From positions 6,086 through 70,085 of IMG/VR virus record IMGVR_UViG_3300028832_000134: a DNA stretch of 64,000 nt; one strand, given 5' to 3'. The notes under the pieces are model-generated. The model did no database searches and had not been told where the DNA came from. It worked only from the letters and a program-made list of their open reading frames with translations. The DNA comes from a virus. Lineage: Duplodnaviria > Caudoviricetes. This document shows positions 5,454 through 57,281 of this stretch, one piece after another. Position 1 is the stretch's first letter, and every line of letters begins with the position of its first letter. A program made the position numbers and the translations under genes.

Positions 5454-6536
5454 TCAGTAATCATAATCAACACGATAGAACTTACTGCGATAGGATTCTA
5501 GATCCGAACGAAGTTCTGAGATAGTATCAGCACGGAAATAAACGATCGGAGCTGTCTCTTTTCTAGGATCGTCGTCAAATGCGGCCATCTCTGCTTCGAA
5601 TCTATCTCCATCCCACCGCTTAGCTTCATCGCCATAATCGACGCATTTCGTCAGAAGCGGTTGTGCCCATGCCGGCAACTTTATCAAGAGCCTCCGGTCG
5701 TCCATGTCACCGTAGTACTTAGGATGGAATGTAGCTTTTGACACAGCTACTGTATCTTCAATAGTTTTGCGAATCTGATACATCCATTCACGGACCTGAA
5801 CACGAATCTTCTCCATGGTCTTGGACTTATTGATATCAAAGTCAACTTTCGGATTGAACTTGATGATAGCTCGAAGAGTCTTGACCCACTTCTGGCTCAG
5901 CATCCCCTTCTCAATGAGATCAGCGAACTGCTCTTGATAAGTGTCGTTTGGAATACAACGAGCAACTATCAGAAGTGTATATTCGTCTTGCAACTTACTG
6001 GTAGAAACATATCCGTCCATGTAAGGTGCTTTCTTCTTCAATTTTTCAAAGTATGCAGTCAAGAAACTCACATACTCATCGACTAAGTCTTGATCAAATC
6101 CAGGACTATCTGGAATAGTATCTTCCCCATTGCGGATCAACCAGTAATCGTTGACATACCAGCTCAACGAGTTCCAAGTGTCCCAGATAGTTCCATTTTC
6201 TAGACAAACTACATGAGACGATAGCCCATACGCTCGTTTACCTACAGTTACTAGATAAGTGCCGGTAGGATGGCTATCAGCAAACTCAGTTAGCGTAATT
6301 GCGTCTTTACTGACATTTCTCTTAGTTATGTATCCATGATCGCGAACATACTTGGTCCAGATAGAATCGTACCAGTATTCACTACCGATCTTAAGCAGGT
6401 CTCGATGAACATCATCATATCGTTGACCGTATGCAATGCACAACGCACGAATTGTGCAGTCACCGGTGTTATTGTTTCGAGAATTTGCATTGTATCTCCG
6501 CAGTTCCGCTGCTTCAACATTACTCAACGGAATCAC
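5454..6536 (-). CDS. Protein with N-terminal papain-like/C39-like Cys-His domain
   Basis: GDCTIRAL...SHVVCLENGTIWDTWNS pattern. Confidence 0.5.
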   Translation of the reverse strand: MIPLSNVEAAELRRYNANSRNNNTGDCTIRALCIAYGQRYDDVHRDLLKIGSEYWYDSIWTKYVRDHGYITKRNVSKDAITLTEFADSHPTGTYLVTVGKRAYGLSSHVVCLENGTIWDTWNSLSWYVNDYWLIRNGEDTIPDSPGFDQDLVDEYVSFLTAYFEKLKKKAPYMDGYVSTSKLQDEYTLLIVARCIPNDTYQEQFADLIEKGMLSQKWVKTLRAIIKFNPKVDFDINKSKTMEKIRVQVREWMYQIRKTIEDTVAVSKATFHPKYYGDMDDRRLLIKLPAWAQPLLTKCVDYGDEAKRWDGDRFEAEMAAFDDDPRKETAPIVYFRADTISELRSDLESYRSKFYRVDYDY

Positions 6537-46400: not shown

Positions 46401-48301
46401 CCTAGTACCTCCATGTACTTTGCTCTGAATTCAGCTTCGGTGATTTTAGGGATGCCGAGTTTATCAGCTTTTCGATTCTTCTCAGATCCAGAATTTGGAT
46501 CATCTGTGATAAGATATGCTACACCTGATTTGATCTCTGAGATAACAAATCCATACTTGCGGAGCTCTGCGTCGAAATCGGATCTACGGACTGACAGTTT
46601 ACCAGTTATAGCGACAGGAGTGTACTGAATCAATGTCATCCCAACATCTACAAGACGATGTGAAATGAAATTCAACCTCTCTAACTTCACTGGATTGTTT
46701 TGAACAGACTCCGCGTTAGCTTTCCCGATAGCATCAGCTACTTCGTAGAAATTTCTGCGATCTAGAATATGATCAATAACCTGAGGCCATGTCATACCTT
46801 TGCCTCGAAGTGTGACAAAATACTGGTTCAACTTAGCTGCGTTCATGTCTGCAATTCTTGGAATATTAAGACACTGAATTGCCGAGACAGGACCCACCGG
46901 ATCATCGCTGTACAGTTTCTGTAACATTGTGTTACACATTGTATCTTGGACACCCGCAGGATCTTGGATAAGCGGCCGATCAGTCATCAGCTTTTCAATA
47001 CTAACATCTGGGCGTAACAGCTGCTTGAAATATTTAGTTCTAAGCGTATCACCAAATCCATCAATTGGAGCAAGAACATCAGACCAAACGAGCAAGTCTT
47101 GCAATTTAGCATTGCTACAATTTTCATTAGGACAAACAAGATGAACACCTTGCCAGTCTAGCTCTGTATAGCAACACGGGCATCTATAAGGAACCTGATA
47201 GAATTCTGAAGGCACAAGCACTTCATTTATATTAGGAATTATTTCTCCGTGTTTCTCTACAGAAACTACTGCACCGGGGCCAATGCGGTTGTTGAGGATA
47301 TACTCTGCGTTGTAACCCGTTGCCCAGCTTACGTCGGTTCCTGAAATATGAACTGTTTTCAGACTAACTCTAGGAACAAGTAACCGATTCTTTGTTAAGT
47401 TCCATTCCACATGATCTACTTCCGTCACCGCTACTTCTGCAGGAAACTTATATGCTTGTTCAGTATATGTGACCTCTCCTGTAGATGAATTCCATCCGAT
47501 GTCAAACAACTTCATAACAAGCCCGTCAGTAGGTAATGCGTTGCCGTTCAAGATTTCTGACAATTCTTTGAAATTATCACAACTGTTTAGAACGCCTCCA
47601 GCGTGAGGAGCTGTAAACATGAAATTATCTTGAAGCCATACATTCATAGTAGGCATGGACATAGGCGGTTTAGACTGTGAGCCTACAATCTTGTAAACTA
47701 CAATTGTAAGGTATTTGAGATCGTCTCGAACTTCATTTGCATTCAGTAGACCTGCAGTAGCGTTTCTTGAGTTCTTAGCTTCTGGATGCAGCGCTTTGAA
47801 CTTATCCCAATCAGAATTCAGCATAAGAATTTCGCCACGAACTGCTCCAGTGAAGGTTTTGTCTTTCAGATGGATCTGATGCTCTTCGACAACATGAAGT
47901 ATCTTATCAGTTACATCAATTCCAGTTACGCCGTCTCCACGAGTCACAGCTCGGACTAATACGCCTTGTTTGTAATACAAGACCATAGAAAGTCCGTCAA
48001 GTTTCAACGATATATCAACGTTCTTTCCTTTGAGGACTTTGTTGATTTCCTCCCAACTATGGGCCTTATCTAACGATCCTACTAGCCCATAAGTGTGTTG
48101 AAACTTTTCACCTGGAGTACTATCTTGGCCGACCTCATATCCCCAACCGACCTGTGACACTTCTGCTGCATCCGGGTTGTGCTCCTTGAGCAGTTTCTGT
48201 GCAGCGTCAAACACTTCATCCGACATTGTTTGCTTGCCGGTGGTGTAGTACTCCTGCGACGCTTCTTTGAGCCGTGCTGCTAAGATGTTAAACTGTGCCA
48301 T
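46397..48301 (-). CDS. ligA: NAD+-dependent DNA ligase
   Basis: KLDG, AVTRGDG, RGEI, NSRNATAG, DGLV, AYKF, GEIIP, C4 zinc finger, C-terminal BRCT (TGK...K.RKADKLGIPKITE). Confidence 0.95.
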   Translation of the reverse strand: MAQFNILAARLKEASQEYYTTGKQTMSDEVFDAAQKLLKEHNPDAAEVSQVGWGYEVGQDSTPGEKFQHTYGLVGSLDKAHSWEEINKVLKGKNVDISLKLDGLSMVLYYKQGVLVRAVTRGDGVTGIDVTDKILHVVEEHQIHLKDKTFTGAVRGEILMLNSDWDKFKALHPEAKNSRNATAGLLNANEVRDDLKYLTIVVYKIVGSQSKPPMSMPTMNVWLQDNFMFTAPHAGGVLNSCDNFKELSEILNGNALPTDGLVMKLFDIGWNSSTGEVTYTEQAYKFPAEVAVTEVDHVEWNLTKNRLLVPRVSLKTVHISGTDVSWATGYNAEYILNNRIGPGAVVSVEKHGEIIPNINEVLVPSEFYQVPYRCPCCYTELDWQGVHLVCPNENCSNAKLQDLLVWSDVLAPIDGFGDTLRTKYFKQLLRPDVSIEKLMTDRPLIQDPAGVQDTMCNTMLQKLYSDDPVGPVSAIQCLNIPRIADMNAAKLNQYFVTLRGKGMTWPQVIDHILDRRNFYEVADAIGKANAESVQNNPVKLERLNFISHRLVDVGMTLIQYTPVAITGKLSVRRSDFDAELRKYGFVISEIKSGVAYLITDDPNSGSEKNRKADKLGIPKITEAEFRAKYMEVLG

Positions 48302-48310
48302 TATGTCACC

Positions 48311-48601
48311 TCACTGAATCAACTTGTTTCGATGCAAGTAAGTTAGCATGGTTTCTTGATACCCTGTGATTACGTTCTCAAACAAGAAGTGATCTAGTTT
48401 CATACGACCAATGAATTTGGAGTGAAGATCATACACATCTCCGTAGACATCGTCATTGCTATCTTTGTGTATTGATTCTACTGATACTAAGTACATCCTA
48501 CCAATTTCGATTTGTTTAGGCAAGCTCGTGCTGGCTGTCTTGCATCTTGCAAAGATGATCTCCATGGCTGACTCCTCCTTACTCAATGTAGAAACTCTCA
48601 C
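48311..48601 (-). CDS. Hypothetical protein, tandem paralog B
   Basis: Aligns end-to-end with 48579-48845. Confidence 0.65.
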   Translation of the reverse strand: MRVSTLSKEESAMEIIFARCKTASTSLPKQIEIGRMYLVSVESIHKDSNDDVYGDVYDLHSKFIGRMKLDHFLFENVITGYQETMLTYLHRNKLIQ

Positions 48602-48845
48602 GAAGCCGGGCCAGGAGATCTTCTGTTTGTTTTGTCACTACATCTTCGAACTGAAAATGCGTAACAAGCATGTTGCCGACAAATCGCTCATCCTTAGTGT
48701 AGATGTTTGCATATACTTCGTCTTTTTTGACCTGCCAGATAGAATCGAGCGACAGCAGATAGCTCTCACCTACTTGAACTTGATCCGGCATGCTATCTCG
48801 AATAGAGATACATTTCACAGGAATAGAATTCAGATAAGTACTCAT
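48579..48845 (-). CDS. Hypothetical protein, tandem paralog A
   Basis: Start set at MSTYLN after GGAGGT. Confidence 0.65.
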   Translation of the reverse strand: MSTYLNSIPVKCISIRDSMPDQVQVGESYLLSLDSIWQVKKDEVYANIYTKDERFVGNMLVTHFQFEDVVTKQTEDLLARLRESFYIE

Positions 48846-48996
48846 TTTGATACCTCCGATGATCGTTGATTTGTGTTGAATCATGTACAATAACGATTCT
48901 ACAACAAAGAAATGCCGCCTATGTGTGGCGGCACATAGGCGGCGGCGCAGAAAGGAACGGAACAGTACAGCACATGGGAGGGCATCGTGTGTACCC

Positions 48997-49072
48997 TGGA
49001 GCAGGAGACGGGACTCGAACCCGCGGCAGTCTGCTTGGAGGGCAGATACTCTACCATCTGAGTTACTCCTGC
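48997..49072 (-). tRNA. tRNA-Gly(UCC)
   Basis: Full cloverleaf, encoded CCA. Confidence 0.95.
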
Positions 49073-49074
49073 AT

Positions 49075-50135
49075 GTTGGCATACTACCGATGATCAATCG
49101 GCTGTCTCCCCTGGGGTATGCCAGCTTCCAGCGGACGCTGTTTTAATACGCGCACGCCTTTGCGTAAGCTTCCATCAAGCTCTAAGAGTTGTTTTTGATC
49201 ACAGGCCGAACCAATCCTGATTTAATTTGATGAAACAATGACGGCCCCTTTACGAACAATCTCTCCGGTTACATTACGCCTGACGCTCAAGTAAGAGTTG
49301 GTCATCGTAGCCTCTGCTCAATTCATGTCCGCTATCCTACTGGGGACGCATCCCCAACCCTCACCGGATTGATTGTCGGAAAGGGGCCGATCACAGCTTG
49401 TGTCATTTTCGATCCATTCGCTCTTGCAGCTCGCTCACAGATCTCCATCTCTGCTGAGGTCTACTTCTGGCACAAGATACTTTATTCTGCACTCTCGTAG
49501 TAAATGTTGCAATGGAGAATTTCCCGGGGTTGTTAGGTACCCGTACAACAATAACCTGCACGCCCCCACTATACTATGTACCATCACACAGGCAGTATAG
49601 TGTCGCTTCCGTCAGATATATCTTTTCACTGACGGTGACGTACTTTTCGTGTGGCGCCTTTTCCCACTTGGCGCCTGGGTCGCATCTCTCGTCAAAGTCT
49701 GCTCAACATGTTACCATGCTTCTTGCCTTCGTCCTTGTTGACAATTTGACAACAAGACGGGCGACCCCCTGAGGCCCAATAATGTTGCCGGATCTACGGC
49801 TCTAACAAGGAATGTGCATGCTCCAACAGATAGTGCTATTCGTATCACTCAGAGCTACACGTTATTACTCCTCGCATCCTTGCTAGATCACATGGGGCCG
49901 CTCTTCTGCGTCACTATCGGCGCGTGCGGCCAGGCTCCGACAGCTGAAATGATCTGCTGCCGGGGCAACTCCCTCCCGATTTCAGTTGCAGCTACGGGTT
50001 ATAATACTGCAACCTAGTGGGGCAACCGGACTTCAGGAGAGCGTCAGCACCACTTGACCTATGTGTTAACTCCCTACACGACTACTTACTTGCCTGGTCG
50101 TCGTCGTATCCGGCCGGCAGTGTGCGTCAATTAGA
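49075..50135 (-). ncRNA. Large structured ncRNA candidate (GOLLD/ROOL-like)
   Basis: About 1.06 kb with no credible ORF between two tRNAs, many nested helices. Confidence 0.5.
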
Positions 50136-50138
50136 CGC

Positions 50139-50222
50139 TGGTGCGGATGACAGGACTCGAACCTGCATGGTCTATCCACTGGAACCTAAATCCAGCGTGT
50201 CTGCCAGTTCCACCACATCCGC
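50139..50222 (-). tRNA. tRNA-Leu(UAG)
   Basis: Cloverleaf with variable arm, CCA. Confidence 0.95.
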
Positions 50223-50225
50223 AAG

Positions 50226-50510
50226 TTAATCAGGAAGATTAGTTTCGCCTACATTGAAGTAGTGAACGGTCTGCGTAACCGTGTACAGATCTCTGCTGGT
50301 CATCGTGTGAGATGCCAGAATGAAATTGTAGGCTTCGCTGTCGATCTCGCAATCCACGGTGCTGAGTACGTCACACCGGAAAGGCTTAACTCCTTCCTCA
50401 TGGTTGAGCATCACCTCGTACCCCGGACGGATGCTGCCAAATGCCGGTGCAGTGGCAATCACGAGAGTACCGTGATCTCTCCTCTTGCAAAGAACCAACT
50501 TGATGTACAT
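50226..50510 (-). CDS. Hypothetical protein
   Basis: Start MYIKLV after GGAGGT and a promoter motif. Confidence 0.6.
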   Translation of the reverse strand: MYIKLVLCKRRDHGTLVIATAPAFGSIRPGYEVMLNHEEGVKPFRCDVLSTVDCEIDSEAYNFILASHTMTSRDLYTVTQTVHYFNVGETNLPD

Positions 50511-50584
50511 ATCAGTACCTCCTTGAATTTTATTGATGTGTTGGCTGCTTACAACTACTATAACGATCGAGAAAATTTGAAGAA

Positions 50585-50660
50585 TGGAGCTGCTGGACGG
50601 ACTCGAACCGACGGCCTGCGAATTACAAATTCGCTGCTCTACCAACTGAGCTACAACAGC
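50585..50660 (-). tRNA. tRNA-Thr(UGU)
   Basis: Full cloverleaf, CCA. Confidence 0.95.
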
Positions 50661-51041
50661 ATCTCCTGCCGAATAGTTTAATGTGATGACAGATATTCCC
50701 TACATTATTTTCTGCCTGTCCCAAATGACGCATTCAGATAACAGCCACTTTGTGATAATATTATTTCGTATTATCTCGTTTTTGTTAGCCAGGACAACTT
50801 GTTACACCTGTCGTTGAATATAACGATCAGGGGACAAGTATCACATTATTTTGATAGTGTCCCGTAGTCGACGCCTTAGTCCGACCATCCATAGGTTCTT
50901 CGGCGATCCAACGATCTTTCCTATGCGCACGCAGGCGAATTTTCGTGCGTCCGGGACGTTTTAGTTACCCCTTAGATTGTGTAGCAATACTCTAAGCATG
51001 AGGATTTTCTGATGTGTGGCATGATCTCAAAGCTACGCCCC

Positions 51042-51118
51042 TGGCGACTCTGACGGGAATCGAACCCGTGACCTCTGGCGTGACAGGCCAGCGCTCTAAC
51101 CATCTGAGCTACAAAGCC
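51042..51118 (-). tRNA. tRNA-Asp(GUC)
   Basis: Full cloverleaf, CCA. Confidence 0.95.
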
Positions 51119-51594
51119 ATGTAGATGCCTTATTCATCATGACTTAGTTGACCTTTCCCGGCATGGGTGACCGGTTCTCGGTCCAGTGTACCGTGCTGCC
51201 ATTTTTGTCGAATACACCAGATCGGCAGATCCTTCAGCAGAGCTAATCTCACTGGCCCACCAAGTAGCAATGCATTTCATTCTCTCTGAAGGCAGGCACC
51301 CCTCAGATCATCGGGAGCTACCCGATTCTCGTCTCTCCGAAGCGTCACGGTGCTAAGTTCCCTGCTGCTTGAGTGTCACACCGTTTGTACCCACTGTAAC
51401 CCGTGCAGGCTTGAGGCACATCTTAGCTGGAGTGCATCGATATATGCATCCTTCCCTTGTATCAGCTGAATACAAGTCTCCATAGGACTACTGGTAAGTG
51501 TAAGATCTCCTGGTACAGCGATATCCTCCAGATCTTGTCGAACTATTTCAACACTGGATGCCAGGACTGTTTGGGGATCGTTTATCTTACACTT

Positions 51595-51668
51595 TGGCTG
51601 GGGATACTAGAATCGAACTAGTTCAAACGAGGTCAAAGCTCGTTGCGCTGCCAATACGCTAATCCCCA
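51595..51668 (-). tRNA. tRNA-Gln(UUG), divergent
   Basis: U1 start, ACGAG-CTTTGAC-CTCGT arm, CCA; 5' end overlaps the endonuclease stop codon. Confidence 0.9.
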
Positions 51669-52282
51669 GTATCTTTAGTTAAGTATGCATCAATTTGTTT
51701 CTGATATCGAATGAACCACTCTAACGATCTATTGCAGCATACACATAACATCCCTCGAAACTTATTAGTAGAATGATCATGATCAACTGACAGCCCCATT
51801 TTTCGTTTATTTCCATTTACTGTTTGATAATGGCTAAAATCGCGTCCGCATATTTCACACACAGGATGTGCTTGTTTGTATTCATCTAGCTGTTTATAGT
51901 TAATATCTAGTTTGATAAGTTCTGTACCGTTGTATGCTGAAACAAATTTATTAGATATTTTTTGATTACTACGGAGATGCATGCTAAAATGATTACTCAA
52001 TCCAATATAATTTTTGAACGATTTTCCACATTCCGGACACCTAAGTGGATCATCTGCATCCCAAACAAATTCTGGCAACTTATCTAATCTTTGTTTACAA
52101 CCTAAATTAAACTTATCTTTATCTTTGTGCTTACCTTTTAGTGTATCCGACACTCTCTTGTTTACTTCACTTCTGTGCATCCGCGAAGCATATTGGCGAC
52201 TACAATGTGGTGAACAAAATCTGCCTGATCCATATTTCCCATCATGCGTTACACCGCAATTCTCACAGATATAAGTTGACAT
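51659..52282 (-). CDS. Endonuclease VII-type HNH nuclease with zinc fingers (homing endonuclease-like)
   Basis: CENCG..FCSPHC, C2H2 finger CPECGKSF..LSNHFSMH, CEICG..VDHDH..RGMLCVCCN. Confidence 0.8.
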   Translation of the reverse strand: MSTYICENCGVTHDGKYGSGRFCSPHCSRQYASRMHRSEVNKRVSDTLKGKHKDKDKFNLGCKQRLDKLPEFVWDADDPLRCPECGKSFKNYIGLSNHFSMHLRSNQKISNKFVSAYNGTELIKLDINYKQLDEYKQAHPVCEICGRDFSHYQTVNGNKRKMGLSVDHDHSTNKFRGMLCVCCNRSLEWFIRYQKQIDAYLTKDTGD

Positions 52283-52323
52283 TTTGAACCTCCAATTTTA
52301 TGATGTTACAATAAAATTAAAGG

Positions 52324-52361
52324 TTCAAAGTCCGATGTGATTACCATTTCACCACATCCCA
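52324..52361 (-). pseudogene. 5' half of tRNA-Gln(UUG), truncated after the anticodon loop
   Basis: TGGGATG TG GTGA-AATGGTAA-TCAC A TCGGA CTTTGAA, then unrelated sequence. Confidence 0.8.
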
Positions 52362-52551
52362 TTATGTAACACAATCAAGCAGCGGATGTGCTGTTGTCCT
52401 AACCTTATCTGCATGATTGTGTGCGAGTGATCGGAGTGGAAGATGTGACTGGTGACATCTTCCGGCACAGCACATTACAGGAGCACCCTTGCCTGTCCCT
52501 CATGTCTGTCTGGACTGAGGTACTATGAACAATTCCGCACAGCGCGCGGCC

Positions 52552-52627
52552 TGGTGGGCCCAGCAGGACTCGAACCTGCGATCAACCAGTTATGAGCTGG
52601 CAGCTCTGCCAACTGAACTATAGGCCC
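52552..52627 (-). tRNA. tRNA(CAU), probably Ile2
   Basis: GGGCCTA acceptor, CTCATAA loop, CCA. Confidence 0.9.
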
Positions 52628-52776
52628 ATATAGGGCAGCCCATTGCTGACCCAAGGGCTGCATCACAGCTCGTGGCCGGCTTTTTGCGTAGGCTGGTTGG
52701 TCAGACTCCGCTTCCGGAGTTTCGCATCTTATGGTCTGTTTCGTAGAATGCCTTCTACACGGGCAGACTTCCCGAA

Positions 52777-52871
52777 TGGCTCACCCGGCAGGAATTGGAC
52801 CTGCATCTCCCTTGCGCATCAGGTGTTTTACCGAAGGACTTGTTGATCGCCTTACATTAAACTACAGGTGA
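52777..52871 (-). tRNA. Atypical tRNA-like RNA (expanded D-loop, poor anticodon stem)
   Basis: Acceptor TCACCTG/CGGGTGA+GCCA and T-arm intact. Confidence 0.5.
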
Positions 52872-52877
52872 ATATTG

Positions 52878-52953
52878 TGGTGGAATTGATGGGACTCGAA
52901 CCCACGACCTATTGCTTGCAAGGCAATTGCTCTCCCAACTGAGCTACAACCCC
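52878..52953 (-). tRNA. tRNA-Ala(UGC)
   Basis: G3:U70, CCA. Confidence 0.95.
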
Positions 52954-53082
52954 ATGTATGAATCAAGTAAATAGCTGTGACCATCCATTCAACTACAGCT
53001 TTGCACATATAGCGTGCTTTCCGGTGTGGTTAGTACCTTACTCCAAGATGTCTCCGGCACTTCGTAGCACTATTTACCTGAT

Positions 53083-53167
53083 TGGTGTTCAGCGTGGGAC
53101 TCGAACCCACATGCATTGCTGCATCGGTACTTGAAGCCGACATGTCTACCAATTCCATCAGCTGAAC
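53083..53167 (-). tRNA. tRNA-Leu(CAA)
   Basis: Cloverleaf with variable arm, CCA. Confidence 0.9.
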
Positions 53168-53171
53168 ATGT

Positions 53172-53260
53172 TGGCGGAGCAGGTAGGATTTGAACCCACG
53201 GCTCCTTGCGGAGTCACCGGTTTTCAAGACCGGCTCCATAAACCACTCGGACACTGCTCC
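53172..53260 (-). tRNA. tRNA-Ser(UGA)
   Basis: Long variable arm, CCA. Confidence 0.95.
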
Positions 53261-53373
53261 TTATATGTTCGGATACTAGGTCCATATGTGACACTAGAAA
53301 CGTTACAATCTTCGTGCCGGACCTAGTACCCTCCCCAGAATCTGTTGATTCTTTAGTGGACAATCATATTAGA

Positions 53374-53449
53374 TGGTCCAAGTGGAGGGACTCAAACCCC
53401 CGACATCCGGTCCCCAAGGCCGGCGTTCTATCAACTGAACTACACCTGG
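53374..53449 (-). tRNA. tRNA-Pro(UGG)
   Basis: Cloverleaf, CCA. Confidence 0.9.
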
Positions 53450-53652
53450 ATGTATTATCTGCATCATTTATCTAACAAGATAGCTGCTTGTCGTAGTTAG
53501 TATCTGACCTGTACTAGACTTTACTGCCGGCTGTCGCTGCAGACAACAGCTGCCACAGCATCTTGCGAGCTACTTCTTTTGGGCGGGACAAGTAGCAAGC
53601 CCTAGGCAACTAATGAACGACGAAGGATACTTCTTCATGATTCATACCTTTC

Positions 53653-53738
53653 TGGTGCCGCTAACCGGACTCGAACCGGCACGGAATAACTCCGGCGGAT
53701 TTTAAGTCCGCTACGTCTACCAATTCCATCACAGCGGC
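53653..53738 (-). tRNA. tRNA-Leu(UAA)
   Basis: Cloverleaf with variable arm, CCA. Confidence 0.95.
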
Positions 53739-53743
53739 GTTTA

Positions 53744-54183
53744 TGGTGGACCCGGCGAGAGTCGAACTCGCGTCCAAAATTCCTACATAAACACAATCTT
53801 CTTACGCAGTAGGAAACTCGTTTCTGGCATTCAGTAGGCTGCCAAGGACCTTACCATGACCTTTGTGCCTGTTAGGGCTGCCCAGTTATGGGTTCGCCTC
53901 CACCACCTTGTTTTTCCGACAACAAGGAACGTCATTCAGTACCGCCAGCATAAGTCTGTTATACCTGGCGACCTGCTAATTCTTTGACCTCAAGTGTTTA
54001 CCTAGCAGGAGGTACACTGTTTCGGATCCTGTAGTGCTTAAGCAGCAGCCTTCAGAGAGGAAGCAGCGAAAGCAGGATGGATAGCGATGATAGTAGTGTC
54101 AGTTAATTTGTTGTTGACCCTTAGGCGGTATCATACCTGCGAATTGTGTTTTCTCAGAACCCTGTCGAAACCTTTACGGGCCC
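53744..54183 (-). ncRNA. ssrA: tmRNA; tag (A)DTTIIAIHPAFAASSLKAAA*
   Basis: 5' GGGCCCGTAAAGGTTTCGAC, 3' GTTCGACTCTCGCCGGGTCCACCA with G3:U, resume context AAATTAACT|GAC, tag frame 54100-54038. Confidence 0.93.
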
Positions 54184-54691
54184 ATGTGGGGGTGTATCTG
54201 CACATATCTACTTAACTTCTGCCAGATACTGGGAGGGGAAGAACGCTGGATGCATCGCGTTATAGATACCTTGAGCCGGTTGAATCAAAATGTGAGTAAC
54301 CGCATTTATGTAACCTCACATGAAACAGCTATCAGCAAAGATGGCATCAACACCGAAGCTCCGCCGGAGGCGTGATCAGACTGTTTCTTTTGAACACTTG
54401 CTCTTGGTTACGACTTGTCAAAGGCTAGTAAAGAGAGCAACCAGATAGGAGCGAACGGTCCAGGTAGGTCAGCTCGGACTAGATATGGGGGCAAGTCGGG
54501 CAAGCGGTTGGAATGGAAAGCAACGAACCCTCTAGTTTAATGCACCTATTATGACAAGTATCACTACTTTGTCTCCCGGGATTTTCTGCTATTCAGTGCA
54601 TCCTGTGTCACTTGTGCTGGCGATCAACTCAGGTCCATGATAGGGAGGAGATCTAAGGTTCCGTTCATTTCGGGACTACGGATTCGTCACT

Positions 54692-54767
54692 TGGTGGGAA
54701 CAGCAGGACTCGAACCTGCGACCCCTTCCTTGTAAGGGAAGTGCTCTACCAGCTGAGCTATACTCCC
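54692..54767 (-). tRNA. tRNA-Val(UAC)
   Basis: Full cloverleaf, CCA. Confidence 0.95.
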
Positions 54768-54930
54768 GTGTATGGTTGGCGGTGGGGATCCCTTTGGATA
54801 TGGTTCCATACCCCTTCGGCACCGCCTGCGGAATGTGTACCGCACCAGCCTGCTTGGAAGGCAGGCGTCGAACCTGAGAAAACGGAAGGCCTTCCGTCTT
54901 CATCTACAATAACGATCGACAGATGACGAA

Positions 54931-55380
54931 CTACTTGCGCCGTCTACTGTCTTTCTTGCCCCTTCTCATCTTATCTTGATAAGCTCTGTTAGAGGCAGCG
55001 ATCATATCATCTAAGGTCGTCAATTCTTTGCGAACCTTAGGGTGATACATGTTCGTAGGTCTAGGATCTGCTTGTTTCATTTTCTCCGGTCGAATTGGAA
55101 TCTTTTCAACTGCTGCTACAAACTGTTCCGAATCTGAAAGACGGCGACGCAACTTGAGGTGCTTCAGGGACAGCTGTACTTTACCGTTGAATCCACAGAT
55201 GCATTCGGCCTCGTATTTATCACCTGGCCGAACATAATCAGCAGGAGATCGGACAAATTGATCTGAGATATTGGATAGATGAATTAACTGAGTACTGTTA
55301 TCTGATAGCTTTACTACAACACCTGCATTTACTATGTGAGAAACAATGACGGGATACTTATCACCTACAACAAGCTGCAT
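54931..55380 (-). CDS. S1 RNA-binding domain protein
   Basis: LVVGD..V..IVNAGVVV..LIHLSNISDQFV..YVRPGD..VQLSLK. Confidence 0.85.
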   Translation of the reverse strand: MQLVVGDKYPVIVSHIVNAGVVVKLSDNSTQLIHLSNISDQFVRSPADYVRPGDKYEAECICGFNGKVQLSLKHLKLRRRLSDSEQFVAAVEKIPIRPEKMKQADPRPTNMYHPKVRKELTTLDDMIAASNRAYQDKMRRGKKDSRRRK

Positions 55381-55448
55381 GACGGATCCTCCAAATGGTT
55401 TTGGTATTTACATAAAAGGTAGGATTCGTCATGCAGCACGCTGTTGTA

Positions 55449-57281
55449 TTAGATGCTGATAAGTGTCACATGATCATTGGCGCAGCCAACTACACCGGCG
55501 AGGATGTACTGAATCTCCGGATGCGATGCTAACATAGCGGTCAAGATATCGTGATTCTGATCATCCAGATGATCAAACAAGTCGTCAATCATCAGAACCT
55601 TGAGCGGAGATTTGGCACGATTGATGATAGCCATCATGAGAGCAGTAGACACTACGCACTTCTCACCACTTGAGAGCAGCGAGAACGGAACATAATCGTT
55701 GGTTTCGGTATTCTGCAATCCGAAACTGAAGGAATTGGCTTTCTCCGAGATGATGAACTTCGGAGTTCGCTTGTCGCCGAATATCGGAGAAGTGTAGTTA
55801 CACATATCTACTGCCAGGTGAGCGAACGGTCTAACAGAAAGAGCAGACTGAATGCCGTTCGGACCTGTAGCTGCAATCAACCGCTTCAGAACCTCGAGCT
55901 CAAGATCTACTTTGAACTTATCTTTGGTCATAGTATCTGCGAGCTTAGCATACTGCACATTTGCGGTGATGTGTCCGATCCGATGTTCCAGATCAGTGAT
56001 GATAGCATCGATCTCAGCAAGGTCAGTAGACCCTTCCGGAGCTACAGGTGCCTCAATCTGCATTGCGCTGATGTGAAGATAGTTGTCGTGATTCACACGA
56101 ATCTGAGACAAGTCCTGACCCAACTGCATCATCTGCTTGCGGAGACCCTCCAACTCCTTCTCCATATCAATAATGCGATTAGATACTCCTAAGTAATCTT
56201 CTTGGATCAATGCATGAGAAGTACGTGCATCATCTAGCAGACCTTTGATACTATCGCAGATTGATTTAGTAAAAGGACAAGTCCCATCGGTACTTTTGAG
56301 AAGAGCTTCTAGCGGAGCCATCTGGTCCCGATACTGATCACGACGACCACGAAGACGAATAATAGCATCGCTGAGATCGGTCATCTTCTGCTGCACTTGG
56401 AGGAGCGCGCTGTTTGCAGCAATGTAGTCCGGATTCTCCTCGAGCGGAAGTTGATCATTCATCGAGAACCTCTGGAGCTCGGCTTGAACACGATCATACT
56501 GGGCCTTTTTGTGGAGATAATCCGCAACATGATCTCTATGGGCCCTGACTTTCCTTCGCTCTTCCTTGACCGCCTCAAGTATGCCTTCGTCCGAACTCTC
56601 ATCATCGTAGCGGATCAGCGAATTGATAGTGCCGGAGACACGAGTCTGTTCAGTCAGCTTGAGCTGCCGAACTGACTTGAGGTAGTTGTTGAAATGCGCT
56701 AACGCTGCAGACACGCCGCCTGTCATTGCTCGATATTCATGCCACTGCTGCATGAGACTGATGACGAACTCAGCCTGAGGATCTAGATGCAAGTCGTTGA
56801 GAGACTCCATCAGTTTAAGTTCGACACCTTGGTCATCTTCGACCTCCGGCAGGAACTTGATGAACCAGTCCTTTTGCATGTTGGCCGTCATGCCCAGCAG
56901 CTCGTTGAAGTTGAATATCGGTAGCTCCAGATCATTGACGATAGCGTCAAGCGAAGTACCTTCGGGATCCACCATCACTTCACTAGTGTTCTTTCCGCCA
57001 TTGGAGAAGAACATACGCGTGATAGTGACGGACTTGTCGCCGTCAGCTAACTCGAGAATGATCTGCATTGTCTTGCCGCTCATGTGCTGAAACACAGAAC
57101 CTTTGGCCTTGCCTGTCATCGGAACGTAGCCCAGCAACGCTAGCTGAATCGCTTGCAGGACTGTGGACTTACCGCTGCCGTTTGGCCCGATCAGGTATGT
57201 GATGTTGTCGAATGTGTACTCCTTCTGGACAACATTGTGCATGCCTCGAATGGTGATTTTGCGAATCTTCATACATGACAC
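55449..57281 (-). CDS. SMC/SbcC (Rad50)-like ATPase
   Basis: GPNGSGKS, coiled coils with central CPFT hook-like site, LSSGEK, IDDLFDHLD. Confidence 0.88.
   Translation of the reverse strand: MSCMKIRKITIRGMHNVVQKEYTFDNITYLIGPNGSGKSTVLQAIQLALLGYVPMTGKAKGSVFQHMSGKTMQIILELADGDKSVTITRMFFSNGGKNTSEVMVDPEGTSLDAIVNDLELPIFNFNELLGMTANMQKDWFIKFLPEVEDDQGVELKLMESLNDLHLDPQAEFVISLMQQWHEYRAMTGGVSAALAHFNNYLKSVRQLKLTEQTRVSGTINSLIRYDDESSDEGILEAVKEERRKVRAHRDHVADYLHKKAQYDRVQAELQRFSMNDQLPLEENPDYIAANSALLQVQQKMTDLSDAIIRLRGRRDQYRDQMAPLEALLKSTDGTCPFTKSICDSIKGLLDDARTSHALIQEDYLGVSNRIIDMEKELEGLRKQMMQLGQDLSQIRVNHDNYLHISAMQIEAPVAPEGSTDLAEIDAIITDLEHRIGHITANVQYAKLADTMTKDKFKVDLELEVLKRLIAATGPNGIQSALSVRPFAHLAVDMCNYTSPIFGDKRTPKFIISEKANSFSFGLQNTETNDYVPFSLLSSGEKCVVSTALMMAIINRAKSPLKVLMIDDLFDHLDDQNHDILTAMLASHPEIQYILAGVVGCANDHVTLISI

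Follow-up and report, generated by a model that had tools for sequence, protein, structure and literature searches.

How can a mobile gene settle inside a transfer RNA (tRNA) gene without depriving its bearer of that tRNA and without being spliced out? This question is raised by a 64,000-nucleotide stretch of the phage record IMGVR_UViG_3300028832_000134 of IMG/VR (positions 6,086 to 70,085; hereafter the window, meaning the whole stretch that was analysed), in which a nuclease gene lies between the 5' part of one tRNA-Gln(UUG) gene, called here the scar, and a complete and divergent copy of the same tRNA gene. The comparisons reported below make it quite probable that these parts form a cassette, built around a free-standing homing endonuclease, that spreads not by splicing out of its target gene but by taking the place of that gene. 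The cassette and its resident left flank are organized as follows:

51595..52361, minus strand: cassette block, from the start of the scar to the 3' end of tRNA-Gln, i.e. the high-identity tract common with the related contig L003 (blastn, sliding identity)
52325..52361, minus strand: scar, nucleotides (nt) 1-37 of a tRNA-Gln(UUG), which matches intact genes and has neither a tRNA call nor a 3' partner
52278..52332, minus strand: predicted leader hairpin of about 23 pairs (fold prediction compared with shuffles)
51659..52282, minus strand: putative free-standing homing endonuclease gene encoding 207 amino acids (aa) (open reading frame, ORF; Pfam, PHROGs, homologues, 19-sequence alignment and AlphaFold model)
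51595..51668, minus strand: complete tRNA-Gln(UUG) with encoded CCA (ARAGORN; Rfam, 58.9 bits)
52362-52551, minus strand: spacer of 190 nt that forms, with tRNA-Met, the resident left flank of the cassette
52552..52627, minus strand: tRNA-Met(CAU), the upstream neighbour of the cassette (ARAGORN and Rfam)

Read on the minus strand, the scar (52361-52325) is TGGGATGTGGTGAAATGGTAATCACATCGGACTTTGA. It extends from the 5' strand of the acceptor stem, through a complete and paired D-arm (GTGA/TCAC) and the 5' side of the anticodon stem, to A37 in the loop. At 33 of 37 positions it agrees with intact tRNA-Gln(UUG) genes of other viral contigs, and the reverse-complement control gave 0 comparable matches in 90 regions. 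The next position, nt 38, is an A at the scar but a C in all the intact tRNA-Gln genes compared, which puts the break behind A37, within the anticodon loop. The preliminary description of this locus, made from the letters of the window, had thus recognized a real 5' half of tRNA-Gln(UUG) but had placed its end too far, right after the anticodon loop. These 37 nt receive no tRNA call from ARAGORN and reach 18.6 bits with the Rfam tRNA model, for a threshold of 29. The 3' strands that would complete them (CATCCCA for the acceptor stem, TCCGA for the anticodon stem) were sought in 49000-53500 and none was found, and no Rfam intron family matches in 47000-57000 with E up to 1. A split or intron-interrupted tRNA is contradicted by the lack of a 3' partner and of an intron RNA family and by the completeness of the downstream tRNA on its own. 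A tRNA-targeting integrative element is likewise rejected, because the single ORF is that of the nuclease and the duplicated portion is the 5' part of the tRNA, with a full copy downstream.

The scar and the carried tRNA are so different that pairwise alignment of the downstream tRNA with its own upstream region is uninformative (scores not above the best shuffled score); scars were found instead by comparison with a library of intact tRNA 5' halves. Searches of IMG/VR and of JGI metagenome contigs with the exact scar pattern and with a spacer-plus-scar pattern gave no match, which says nothing on absence.

At the other end of the cassette, the first 10 nt of the carried tRNA-Gln, TGGGGATTAG, are also the last codons and the stop of the nuclease ORF; the ARAGORN and Rfam calls bear out the complete tRNA overlapping the nuclease stop codon that had been noted initially. 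Over nt 1-37, this tRNA is 63-68% identical to the scars and deserves to be called very different, as it had been. It is nearly invariant among close carriers of the cassette, its copy being identical in the contig L129 and showing one difference in L003. Its anticodon loop, CTTTGAC, is the same as in intact tRNA-Gln genes. Therefore, nothing points to anticodon-nuclease evasion, and the initial suggestion that the replacement might resist host anticodon nucleases finds no support.

The nuclease ORF starts 42 nt past the scar and encodes a protein made of three small domains:

52193..52273, minus strand (aa 4-30): N-terminal FCS-like zinc finger, CxxCG..YGSGRFCSxxC (PDB profile, Foldseek)
51977..52042, minus strand (aa 81-102): C2H2-type zinc finger insert (Pfam zf-C2H2, E 5e-5, just under the cut-off)
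51713..51880, minus strand (aa 135-190): Endonuclease VII-type beta-beta-alpha-metal domain, DHDH...FRGxLCxxCN (PF02945, PDB profile, Foldseek)

The assignment to an EndoVII/HNH type proposed in the preliminary description is confirmed by matches with Pfam Endonuclease_7 (PF02945; aa 135-190, E 1.4e-7, 31.7 bits for a cut-off of 23.6) and with PHROG 307 'endonuclease VII' (E 1.7e-12). An alignment of 19 nuclease homologues was used to build a profile and to examine conservation. When compared with the PDB, this profile matches Hpy99I (E 1.2e-3) and T4 endonuclease VII (E 0.011) in the nuclease domain, and the FCS finger of Polyhomeotic(-like 1) (2l8e, E 7e-4) in the N-terminal module. The AlphaFold model (pLDDT 87) leads to the same families. 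Indeed, its top Foldseek matches are T4 EndoVII (probability 0.98-0.99), and its FCS part matches the L3MBTL2 FCS finger (2w0t, probability 0.97, root-mean-square deviation 2.1 over 36 columns), with E-values that are uniformly weak, as the small size of the three domains in the chain would lead one to expect. Since D167, H168, H170 and N184 of the DHDH...N motif are invariant in the 19 sequences, the enzyme is probably active. C6, C9, C23 and C27 of the FCS finger are invariant or nearly so, and this finger is presumed to be the nucleic-acid-binding and targeting module. The C2H2 insert is found in part of the family, other homologues of about 162 aa being devoid of it. Two other affiliations were considered and rejected. 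Membership of the SegB or GIY-YIG family finds no counterpart in Pfam, PHROGs and NCBIfam, which gave only EndoVII/HNH-type and zinc-finger matches. Orthology with the gp49 resolvase, a stand-alone core protein of about 157 aa, is contradicted by a match limited to aa 135-190, by the extra FCS and C2H2 modules and by the absence of the gene from the related contig L131.

Whether such a gene is mobile can be judged by comparing the cassette with the genes that border the tRNA array in which it lies:

57281-55449, minus strand: SbcC-like ATPase gene, one border of the tRNA array
48301-46397, minus strand: NAD-dependent ligase gene, the other border of the tRNA array

Relatives that carry the cassette were obtained by exact-protein look-up of a cluster of 92%-identical nucleases (L003-L005) and by a search from the ligase side (L129 and L130). 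All of them harbour tRNA-Met, the spacer, the scar, the leader, the nuclease gene and tRNA-Gln, and are syntenic after tRNA-Met. The nuclease of the window is 97% identical to that of L129 and 92% identical to that of the L003-type cluster (P0001), whereas SbcC identity is only 59% for L129 (obtained via P0024 of L040, the L129 SbcC being of equal length, 611 aa) and 39% for L003; ligase identity is 71% for L129 and 92% for L003. The same holds for the third base of codons encoding identical residues, which is the same in 94% of cases in the nuclease gene for both L129 and L003, versus 47% (L129) and 80% (L003) in the ligase gene. When identity is computed in 60-nt bins, it ranges from 28 to 83% over tRNA-Met and the spacer (42-83% in the comparisons that include the window) and from 87 to 100% between 52298 and 51639 across the window, L003 and L129, the figure for the inside of the cassette being 90-100%. 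In the comparison with L003, the rise of identity coincides with the first nucleotide of the scar, and the block stops at the last base of tRNA-Gln; in that with L129, identity rises after the D-arm and the tract continues through tRNA-Asp to about 50859. The high identity of the cassette versus its divergent flanks implies that its common ancestor is much more recent than that of its surroundings, and a variable tract that ends in or at tRNA-Gln sequence is, judging by these alignments, the footprint of homing with co-conversion. Furthermore, nonsynonymous and synonymous codon changes in the nuclease gene stand at 16:12 between the window and L003 and at 7:15 in a second comparison. Nonsynonymous changes about as common as synonymous ones would be, at codon level, the relaxed constraint typical of selfish genes.

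The scars of the carriers also differ from one another. The D-arm is GTGA...TCAC in the window and L003 and GCC...GGC in L129, whose scar reads TGGGATG TC GCC AAGTGGTAA GGC AC GGGA CTTTGA and whose D-arm is unlike that of the window at nearly every stem position. Both alleles end at the same break, which falls between ...ACTTTGA and ACCTTTAAT. The best match of the L129 scar is the native tRNA-Gln of L131 (78%, vs 68% with the cassette tRNA), and that of the window scar is another natural tRNA-Gln type (86-89%). A decaying scar would lose its pairing; as both D-stems are fully paired, two resident genes each kept their own 5' half. Sequence comparison thus shows two different resident tRNA-Gln alleles apparently invaded at one junction.

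These data bear directly on the possibility that the nuclease gene is an old and immobile insertion, which would have entered once in an ancestor, descended vertically and remained similar through domestication and strong purifying selection. Protein-level selection cannot be the cause of the similarity, because synonymous sites are near-identical too (94% in the nuclease gene vs 47% in the ligase gene), and the ratio of 16:12 between the window and L003 argues against strong constraint. The synteny of the window, L003 and L129 after tRNA-Met would agree with vertical descent, and the sequence GAACCTTTAAT at the junction, common even to the distant clade of L006, would fit a single ancient insertion in those lineages. 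The sharp step of identity at the scar does not agree with it, and two scars whose different D-stems are each internally paired correspond to two alleles and not to the decay of a single scar. On balance, an immobile insertion appears improbable.

A nuclease-free relative is represented by L131 and L133. In these contigs, whose ligase is 56% identical and which have the same order from SbcC to ligase, tRNA-Met is followed about 215 nt further on by one intact tRNA-Gln(UUG), and the locus harbours no EndoVII gene and no scar. A single intact tRNA-Gln had been anticipated for nuclease-free relatives, but with a TGGGATG start, whereas that of L131 and L133 starts with AGGGGCG. Over nt 1-37, this L131-type tRNA-Gln is 58% identical to the cassette tRNA; these cassette-free relatives thus do not already carry the divergent tRNA, a situation that the preliminary description had named as fatal to a replacement scenario.

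Other alleles of the locus were also encountered. In bovine-gut contigs of the runs X7 and X9, 498 unlike letters replace 625 (window 51729-52353), and the contigs retain on one side the cassette tRNA-Gln and the last ~70 nt of the nuclease gene and on the other side the spacer and the first 8 nt of the scar; the 498-letter segment may be a shorter, divergent or decayed allele of the nuclease gene. The Logan contig L040, which is close to L129, departs from it inside the scar (L040:14640-14666, GGCACCA vs GGCACGGGAC) 2 nt before the contig end, which may reflect either an intact tRNA-Gln in an allele devoid of the nuclease or an artefact of the contig end. Among the relatives found from the SbcC side, the contigs L039, L040 and L041 stop inside the array or lack tRNA-Gln. 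A peptide-pattern search of IMG/VR retrieved one distant relative without nearby tRNAs for SbcC and none for the nuclease, and a contig look-up with the L129 nuclease provided no further context.

The same anatomy occurs in two sister clades. In the pig-gut phages L006-L011, whose nuclease is 53% and SbcC 31% identical to those of the window, the scar is 22 nt long and matches intact tRNA-Gln genes at every position; next come the GAACCTTTAAT junction and the nuclease gene, and the downstream tRNA-Gln begins at the base directly after the nuclease stop codon. In L042 and L043 (nuclease 48% identical), a common block of 760 nt with 3 differences begins in the D-loop of the upstream tRNA-Gln scar (TGAGGTGTGGTGTAATGG in L043) and reaches as far as nt 46 in the tRNA-Gln located downstream, and the flanks beyond it are unrelated. 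The tRNA of L043 is a chimera. If this chimera is not an artefact, the conversion tract would end inside the tRNA and the segment lost by the recipient would be about nt 20-46. Elsewhere in L006, a tRNA-like sequence lies after tRNA-Lys (L006:4897-4975; acceptor GCAGTAT...ATACTGC, then TCCA), with an irregular anticodon arm and no ARAGORN call.

The sister clades also help to weigh a second explanation, according to which the nuclease gene landed between pre-existing tandem tRNA-Gln genes and deleted the 3' half of the first one; the downstream tRNA would then be a resident and tRNA-Gln would not be the target. The nuclease-free relative carries one tRNA-Gln and not two, although some phages such as L044 do have two nearby tRNA-Gln genes and although the plasticity of phage tRNA arrays, in which gene order varies among close relatives, would make such a landing conceivable. 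Moreover, nuclease and tRNA belong to one block of high identity that stops at the last base of the tRNA, and the last codons of the ORF are the first 10 nt of the tRNA. The three nuclease clades (48-53% identity) are all fused to tRNA-Gln(UUG), and what L042 and L043 have in common, amid unrelated flanks, is the nuclease gene together with nt 1-46 of the tRNA. A landing between two tRNA-Gln genes is therefore considered unlikely.

Globally, the inference at the core of the preliminary description, i.e. that a free-standing homing endonuclease invades tRNA-Gln near the anticodon and carries a copy of it, is supported by comparison, through the contrast of identity between cassette and flanks, the two alleles invaded at one junction, the nuclease-free relative and the two sister clades. 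As for the features by which homing endonucleases are recognized, the locus shows a nuclease domain with intact catalytic residues, patchy presence among related phages (though the nuclease-free relative is distant) and a co-conversion tract with sharp ends; location in an intron or an intein is excluded. Several points weigh against this interpretation. All the relatives compared are metagenome contigs. Mosaicism exists in any case between the window and L003 (ligase identity of 92% at the protein level and about 90% at the DNA level), so that part of the raised identity reflects general recombination. The sole type of nuclease-free relative recovered is distant (ligase 56%), and the exact pre-insertion allele was not seen. 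The coverage of L043 is about 2x, and its chimeric tRNA could be an assembly artefact. Finally, a strict scan identified clear scars in only 4 of 90 family regions, which suggests that the replacement design is confined to some branches.

The unit is made up of a structured leader, the nuclease gene and, joined to its 3' end, a complete tRNA-Gln(UUG); it lies in a resident tRNA-Gln directly after nt 37, the resident 3' half being gone and the 5' half persisting as the scar. We infer the following scheme as regards where and how the nuclease cuts, why the carried copy would be immune and how expression would be regulated. During a mixed infection, the nuclease would cut the nuclease-free tRNA-Gln gene in or near the region of the D-arm or the anticodon arm. 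The break would be repaired from the cassette-bearing genome, the left homology being provided by the 5' part of the tRNA and the upstream spacer and the right homology by the 3' part of the tRNA or by downstream DNA. After repair, the recipient would have acquired the nuclease gene and the tRNA-Gln of the donor while its own 5' half persisted as a scar, so that tRNA-Gln function would be maintained. The carried tRNA, being unlike the resident alleles in every stem, would be protected from the nuclease as well as from deletion between direct repeats.

Expression of the nuclease is probably held low in two ways, along the lines suggested for T4 segB. The leader is predicted to fold into a hairpin whose 5' arm is made of the scar anticodon region and GAACCTTTAAT, and whose 3' arm covers the Shine-Dalgarno sequence GGAGG (52293-52289) and flanks the AUG, just beyond which the hairpin extends. 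The 92-nt stretch folds at -31.4 kcal/mol (z -6.0), with none of 200 shuffles as good, and equivalent leader hairpins are predicted in L003 (z -3.8), L006 (z -5.3) and L042 (z -3.6). Among relatives, two pairs are altered on both sides. In L006, the arm CCTCATTTCGAAC pairs with GTTCGAAATGAGG; this clade apparently lost five bases of the old anticodon stem and then re-paired the arm. As the 5' arm is partly built from the scar, the remnant of the displaced gene seems to have been drawn into a predicted control element. The GAACCTTTAAT sequence (52326-52316) had initially been taken for a late-type promoter motif. It occurs once in the 64-kb window, versus 1.1 occurrences expected by chance, a sigma-70-type scan of the leader found no site on the minus strand, and the promoter reading was rejected in favour of an arm of a hairpin that is found in all three clades.

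In transcripts of the tRNA operon that read through the cassette, this hairpin would bury the ribosome-binding site. In addition, maturation of the downstream tRNA by RNase P would cut the mRNA 10 nt before its end and remove the last three codons, including the stop. The resulting non-stop message would be a substrate for trans-translation, and a gene for a transfer-messenger RNA (tmRNA) is present in the phage. The presence of this tmRNA could be linked to the non-stop nuclease mRNAs that RNase P processing would generate.

How far does this family extend? Homologues that are 35-40% identical to the nuclease of the window overlap a tRNA, by 31 nt in the case of tRNA-Glu (where a tRNA-like 5' fragment lies upstream) and by 22 nt in that of tRNA-Ile, or sit 15 nt before tRNA-Asp. 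A profile scan of IMG/VR for the N-terminal FCS-like module led to 80 loci being kept (L049-L128). In 78 of them, tRNAs are found at most 2 kb away, and 25 of the 80 have a tRNA on the same strand whose start lies between -30 and +10 nt relative to the stop. The module is combined with nuclease domains of different types, i.e. DUF559/Vsr-like, HNH, HNH_3 and EndoVII (for example, L055:1995-2663, L059:1986-2495 and L077:2031-2795), and many of these proteins share only the N-terminal finger with the nuclease of the window. The FCS-like finger is thus a candidate module for the recognition of tRNA genes. In one of these loci, L105 (ORF 1992-2783), a 29-nt fragment that is 90% identical to the 5' end of tRNA-Tyr lies about 72 nt upstream of the nuclease ORF, the next tRNA being a tRNA-Lys located 278 nt downstream; this fragment may be the scar of another isotype. 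Among cultured phages, the nuclease domain occurs at the end of the tRNA array of Enterococcus phage VRE9_2. In Escherichia phage JH2 (Felixounavirus; L136, NC_029023.1 37837-38319), an 'endonuclease VII' homologue lies between two DNA polymerase coding sequences, which looks like a polymerase gene split by a homing-endonuclease gene.

Polyhomeotic-type FCS zinc fingers reportedly bind RNA. That the protein would act on RNA, in tRNA processing, repair or counter-defence, with its finger bound to tRNA and its place in the array ensuring co-expression with its substrates, might account for the near confinement of the FCS-like module to tRNA arrays and would recall the ability of SegB to aid evasion of a tRNA-cleaving defence (PMC13096335), but is very unlikely given the combination of this module with DNA-nuclease domains of several unrelated kinds (the type of modularity shown by homing endonucleases), the presence of the gene in some related phages and its absence from others, the signatures of mobility at the DNA level (scars, identity steps, relaxed constraint) and the very low expression that the leader hairpin implies.

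A wider proposal, plausible but held only tentatively, is that the FCS-like finger defines an undescribed and large superfamily of homing nucleases that target tRNA genes and have interchangeable catalytic domains (EndoVII, HNH, HNH_3, DUF559/Vsr-like). At least one of its branches would home by replacement, the target tRNA being destroyed, a re-sequenced copy being fused to the nuclease's own stop and the scar being recruited into a silencing hairpin. Such a superfamily would be a main driver of the turnover and divergence of phage tRNA arrays.

The window covers most of a 70-kb IMG/VR viral contig, whose completeness is estimated at about 47%. Near-identical DNA is present in bovine gut metagenome runs, and the phage is an uncultured phage of the rumen. 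Nearly all the long ORFs of the window are carried by the minus strand. According to ARAGORN and Rfam, the array located between the SbcC-like ATPase and NAD-dependent ligase genes comprises 12 tRNA genes and a tmRNA gene, and the cassette comes next after tRNA-Met. The tmRNA gene (53744-54183, minus strand; Rfam RF00023, 78.8 bits) has counterparts in the relatives L039, L040 and L129, the end of the tag peptide being ...AAASLKAAA in 2 of these. Long, GC-richer spacers devoid of ORFs separate some of the tRNA genes (51119-51594, 52362-52551 and 52628-52877, minus strand). From the cassette through 51119-51594 to tRNA-Asp, the window is about 92% identical to L129, whereas the spacer 52362-52551 is only 42-83% identical. 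Small stable RNAs exist in the T4 tRNA cluster. The predicted fold of the 476-nt, ORF-free spacer 51119-51594 is no better than that of shuffles (z -1.0), i.e. this test gives no evidence of a structured RNA. In L041 (SbcC 44% identical), an IS605-type TnpB gene lies within the tRNA array and a GIY-YIG/NUMOD3 nuclease gene lies near UvrD (L041:9100-10353 and L041:118-1164), and in L131 an HNH_3 gene follows tRNA-Val; the array is therefore a landing zone for several kinds of mobile genes.

Homing endonucleases are known from introns, from inteins and from positions between genes. The locus described here would be a third way of entering an essential gene without killing it, in which a divergent working copy is carried along, the old gene is left as a scar and splicing is not needed. 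Furthermore, the model lends itself to direct testing, since natural controls are at hand in two invaded alleles, sister clades and a relative devoid of the nuclease. Should the design prove general, it would contribute to explaining the plasticity of phage tRNA arrays, the strong differences that the stems of phage tRNAs show among themselves and relative to host tRNAs, and the tRNA fragments that litter phage arrays.

Phage tRNA clusters are known to harbour homing endonucleases, such as SegB and the enzymes of T5. The closest known system is SegB of T4. In T4 and T6, SegB is a free-standing GIY-YIG homing endonuclease encoded in the tRNA gene cluster (PMC2330249; PMC13096335). It cuts, at a T-arm motif, the tRNA genes of relatives devoid of segB, which leads to preferential inheritance of the tRNA region with co-conversion of its flanks (PMC2330249). 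Its ORF adjoins the downstream tRNA, which places the RNase P cut behind the last codon but ahead of the stop; its Shine-Dalgarno sequence and start codon are both covered by a stable hairpin (PMC2330249). In a broad range of phages, homologues of SegB are likewise linked to tRNAs (PMC13096335). The cassette of the window resembles this system in several respects, being a free-standing nuclease gene in a phage tRNA array, with an ORF that runs into a tRNA and a predicted hairpin over the ribosome site. It differs by its nuclease, in which an FCS finger, a C2H2 finger and an EndoVII-type beta-beta-alpha-metal domain stand in place of GIY-YIG; by its location inside the target gene after nt 37, with a 5' scar and a re-sequenced full copy of the same tRNA; and by the participation of the scar in the repressing hairpin. 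Truncated or duplicated tRNA genes are not mentioned in the portions of the SegB paper that were searched (PMC2330249).

More distant systems share one or other of these features. The catalytic beta-beta-alpha-metal domain with its DHDH...N motif is that of T4 endonuclease VII (gp49), a Holliday-junction resolvase, but the protein of the window has two zinc-finger modules in addition, and its gene belongs to a tRNA array, lacks a counterpart in a related phage and behaves like a mobile cassette. For I-TevI, SegF, SegG and MobE, a break followed by conversion of the nuclease gene and flanking markers, as well as control of translation by hairpins, have been described (PMC2330249; PMC2790892). 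However, these T-even genes lie in introns or intergenic regions and their target stays intact or is spliced, whereas the target of the window cassette is destroyed and replaced by the carried copy. In the tRNA arrays of mycobacteria and their phages, no coding sequences are more widespread than HNH-type endonuclease genes, which have been implicated in the diversity of tRNA repertoires (PMC5966550). The text consulted reports the association and describes neither scars nor carried replacement tRNAs, and a full-text literature search, of incomplete coverage, found no description of such tRNA scars or replacement tRNAs.

Hairpin control has been reported or proposed for T4 segB, for I-TevI to I-TevIII and for mobE of Aeh1 (PMC2330249). 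For homing-type endonuclease ORFs located in a phage tRNA cluster, the SegB study also mentions a proposed down-regulation through processing of the primary tRNA transcript (PMC2330249). In its regulatory layout, the cassette repeats what has been put forward for T4 segB, although the two nuclease families are unrelated; this suggests convergent solutions for restraining nucleases that cut tRNA genes. What differs from the known systems is the architecture of the nuclease, the insertion within the target gene with a scar and a full tRNA copy, and the reuse of the scar in the predicted hairpin.

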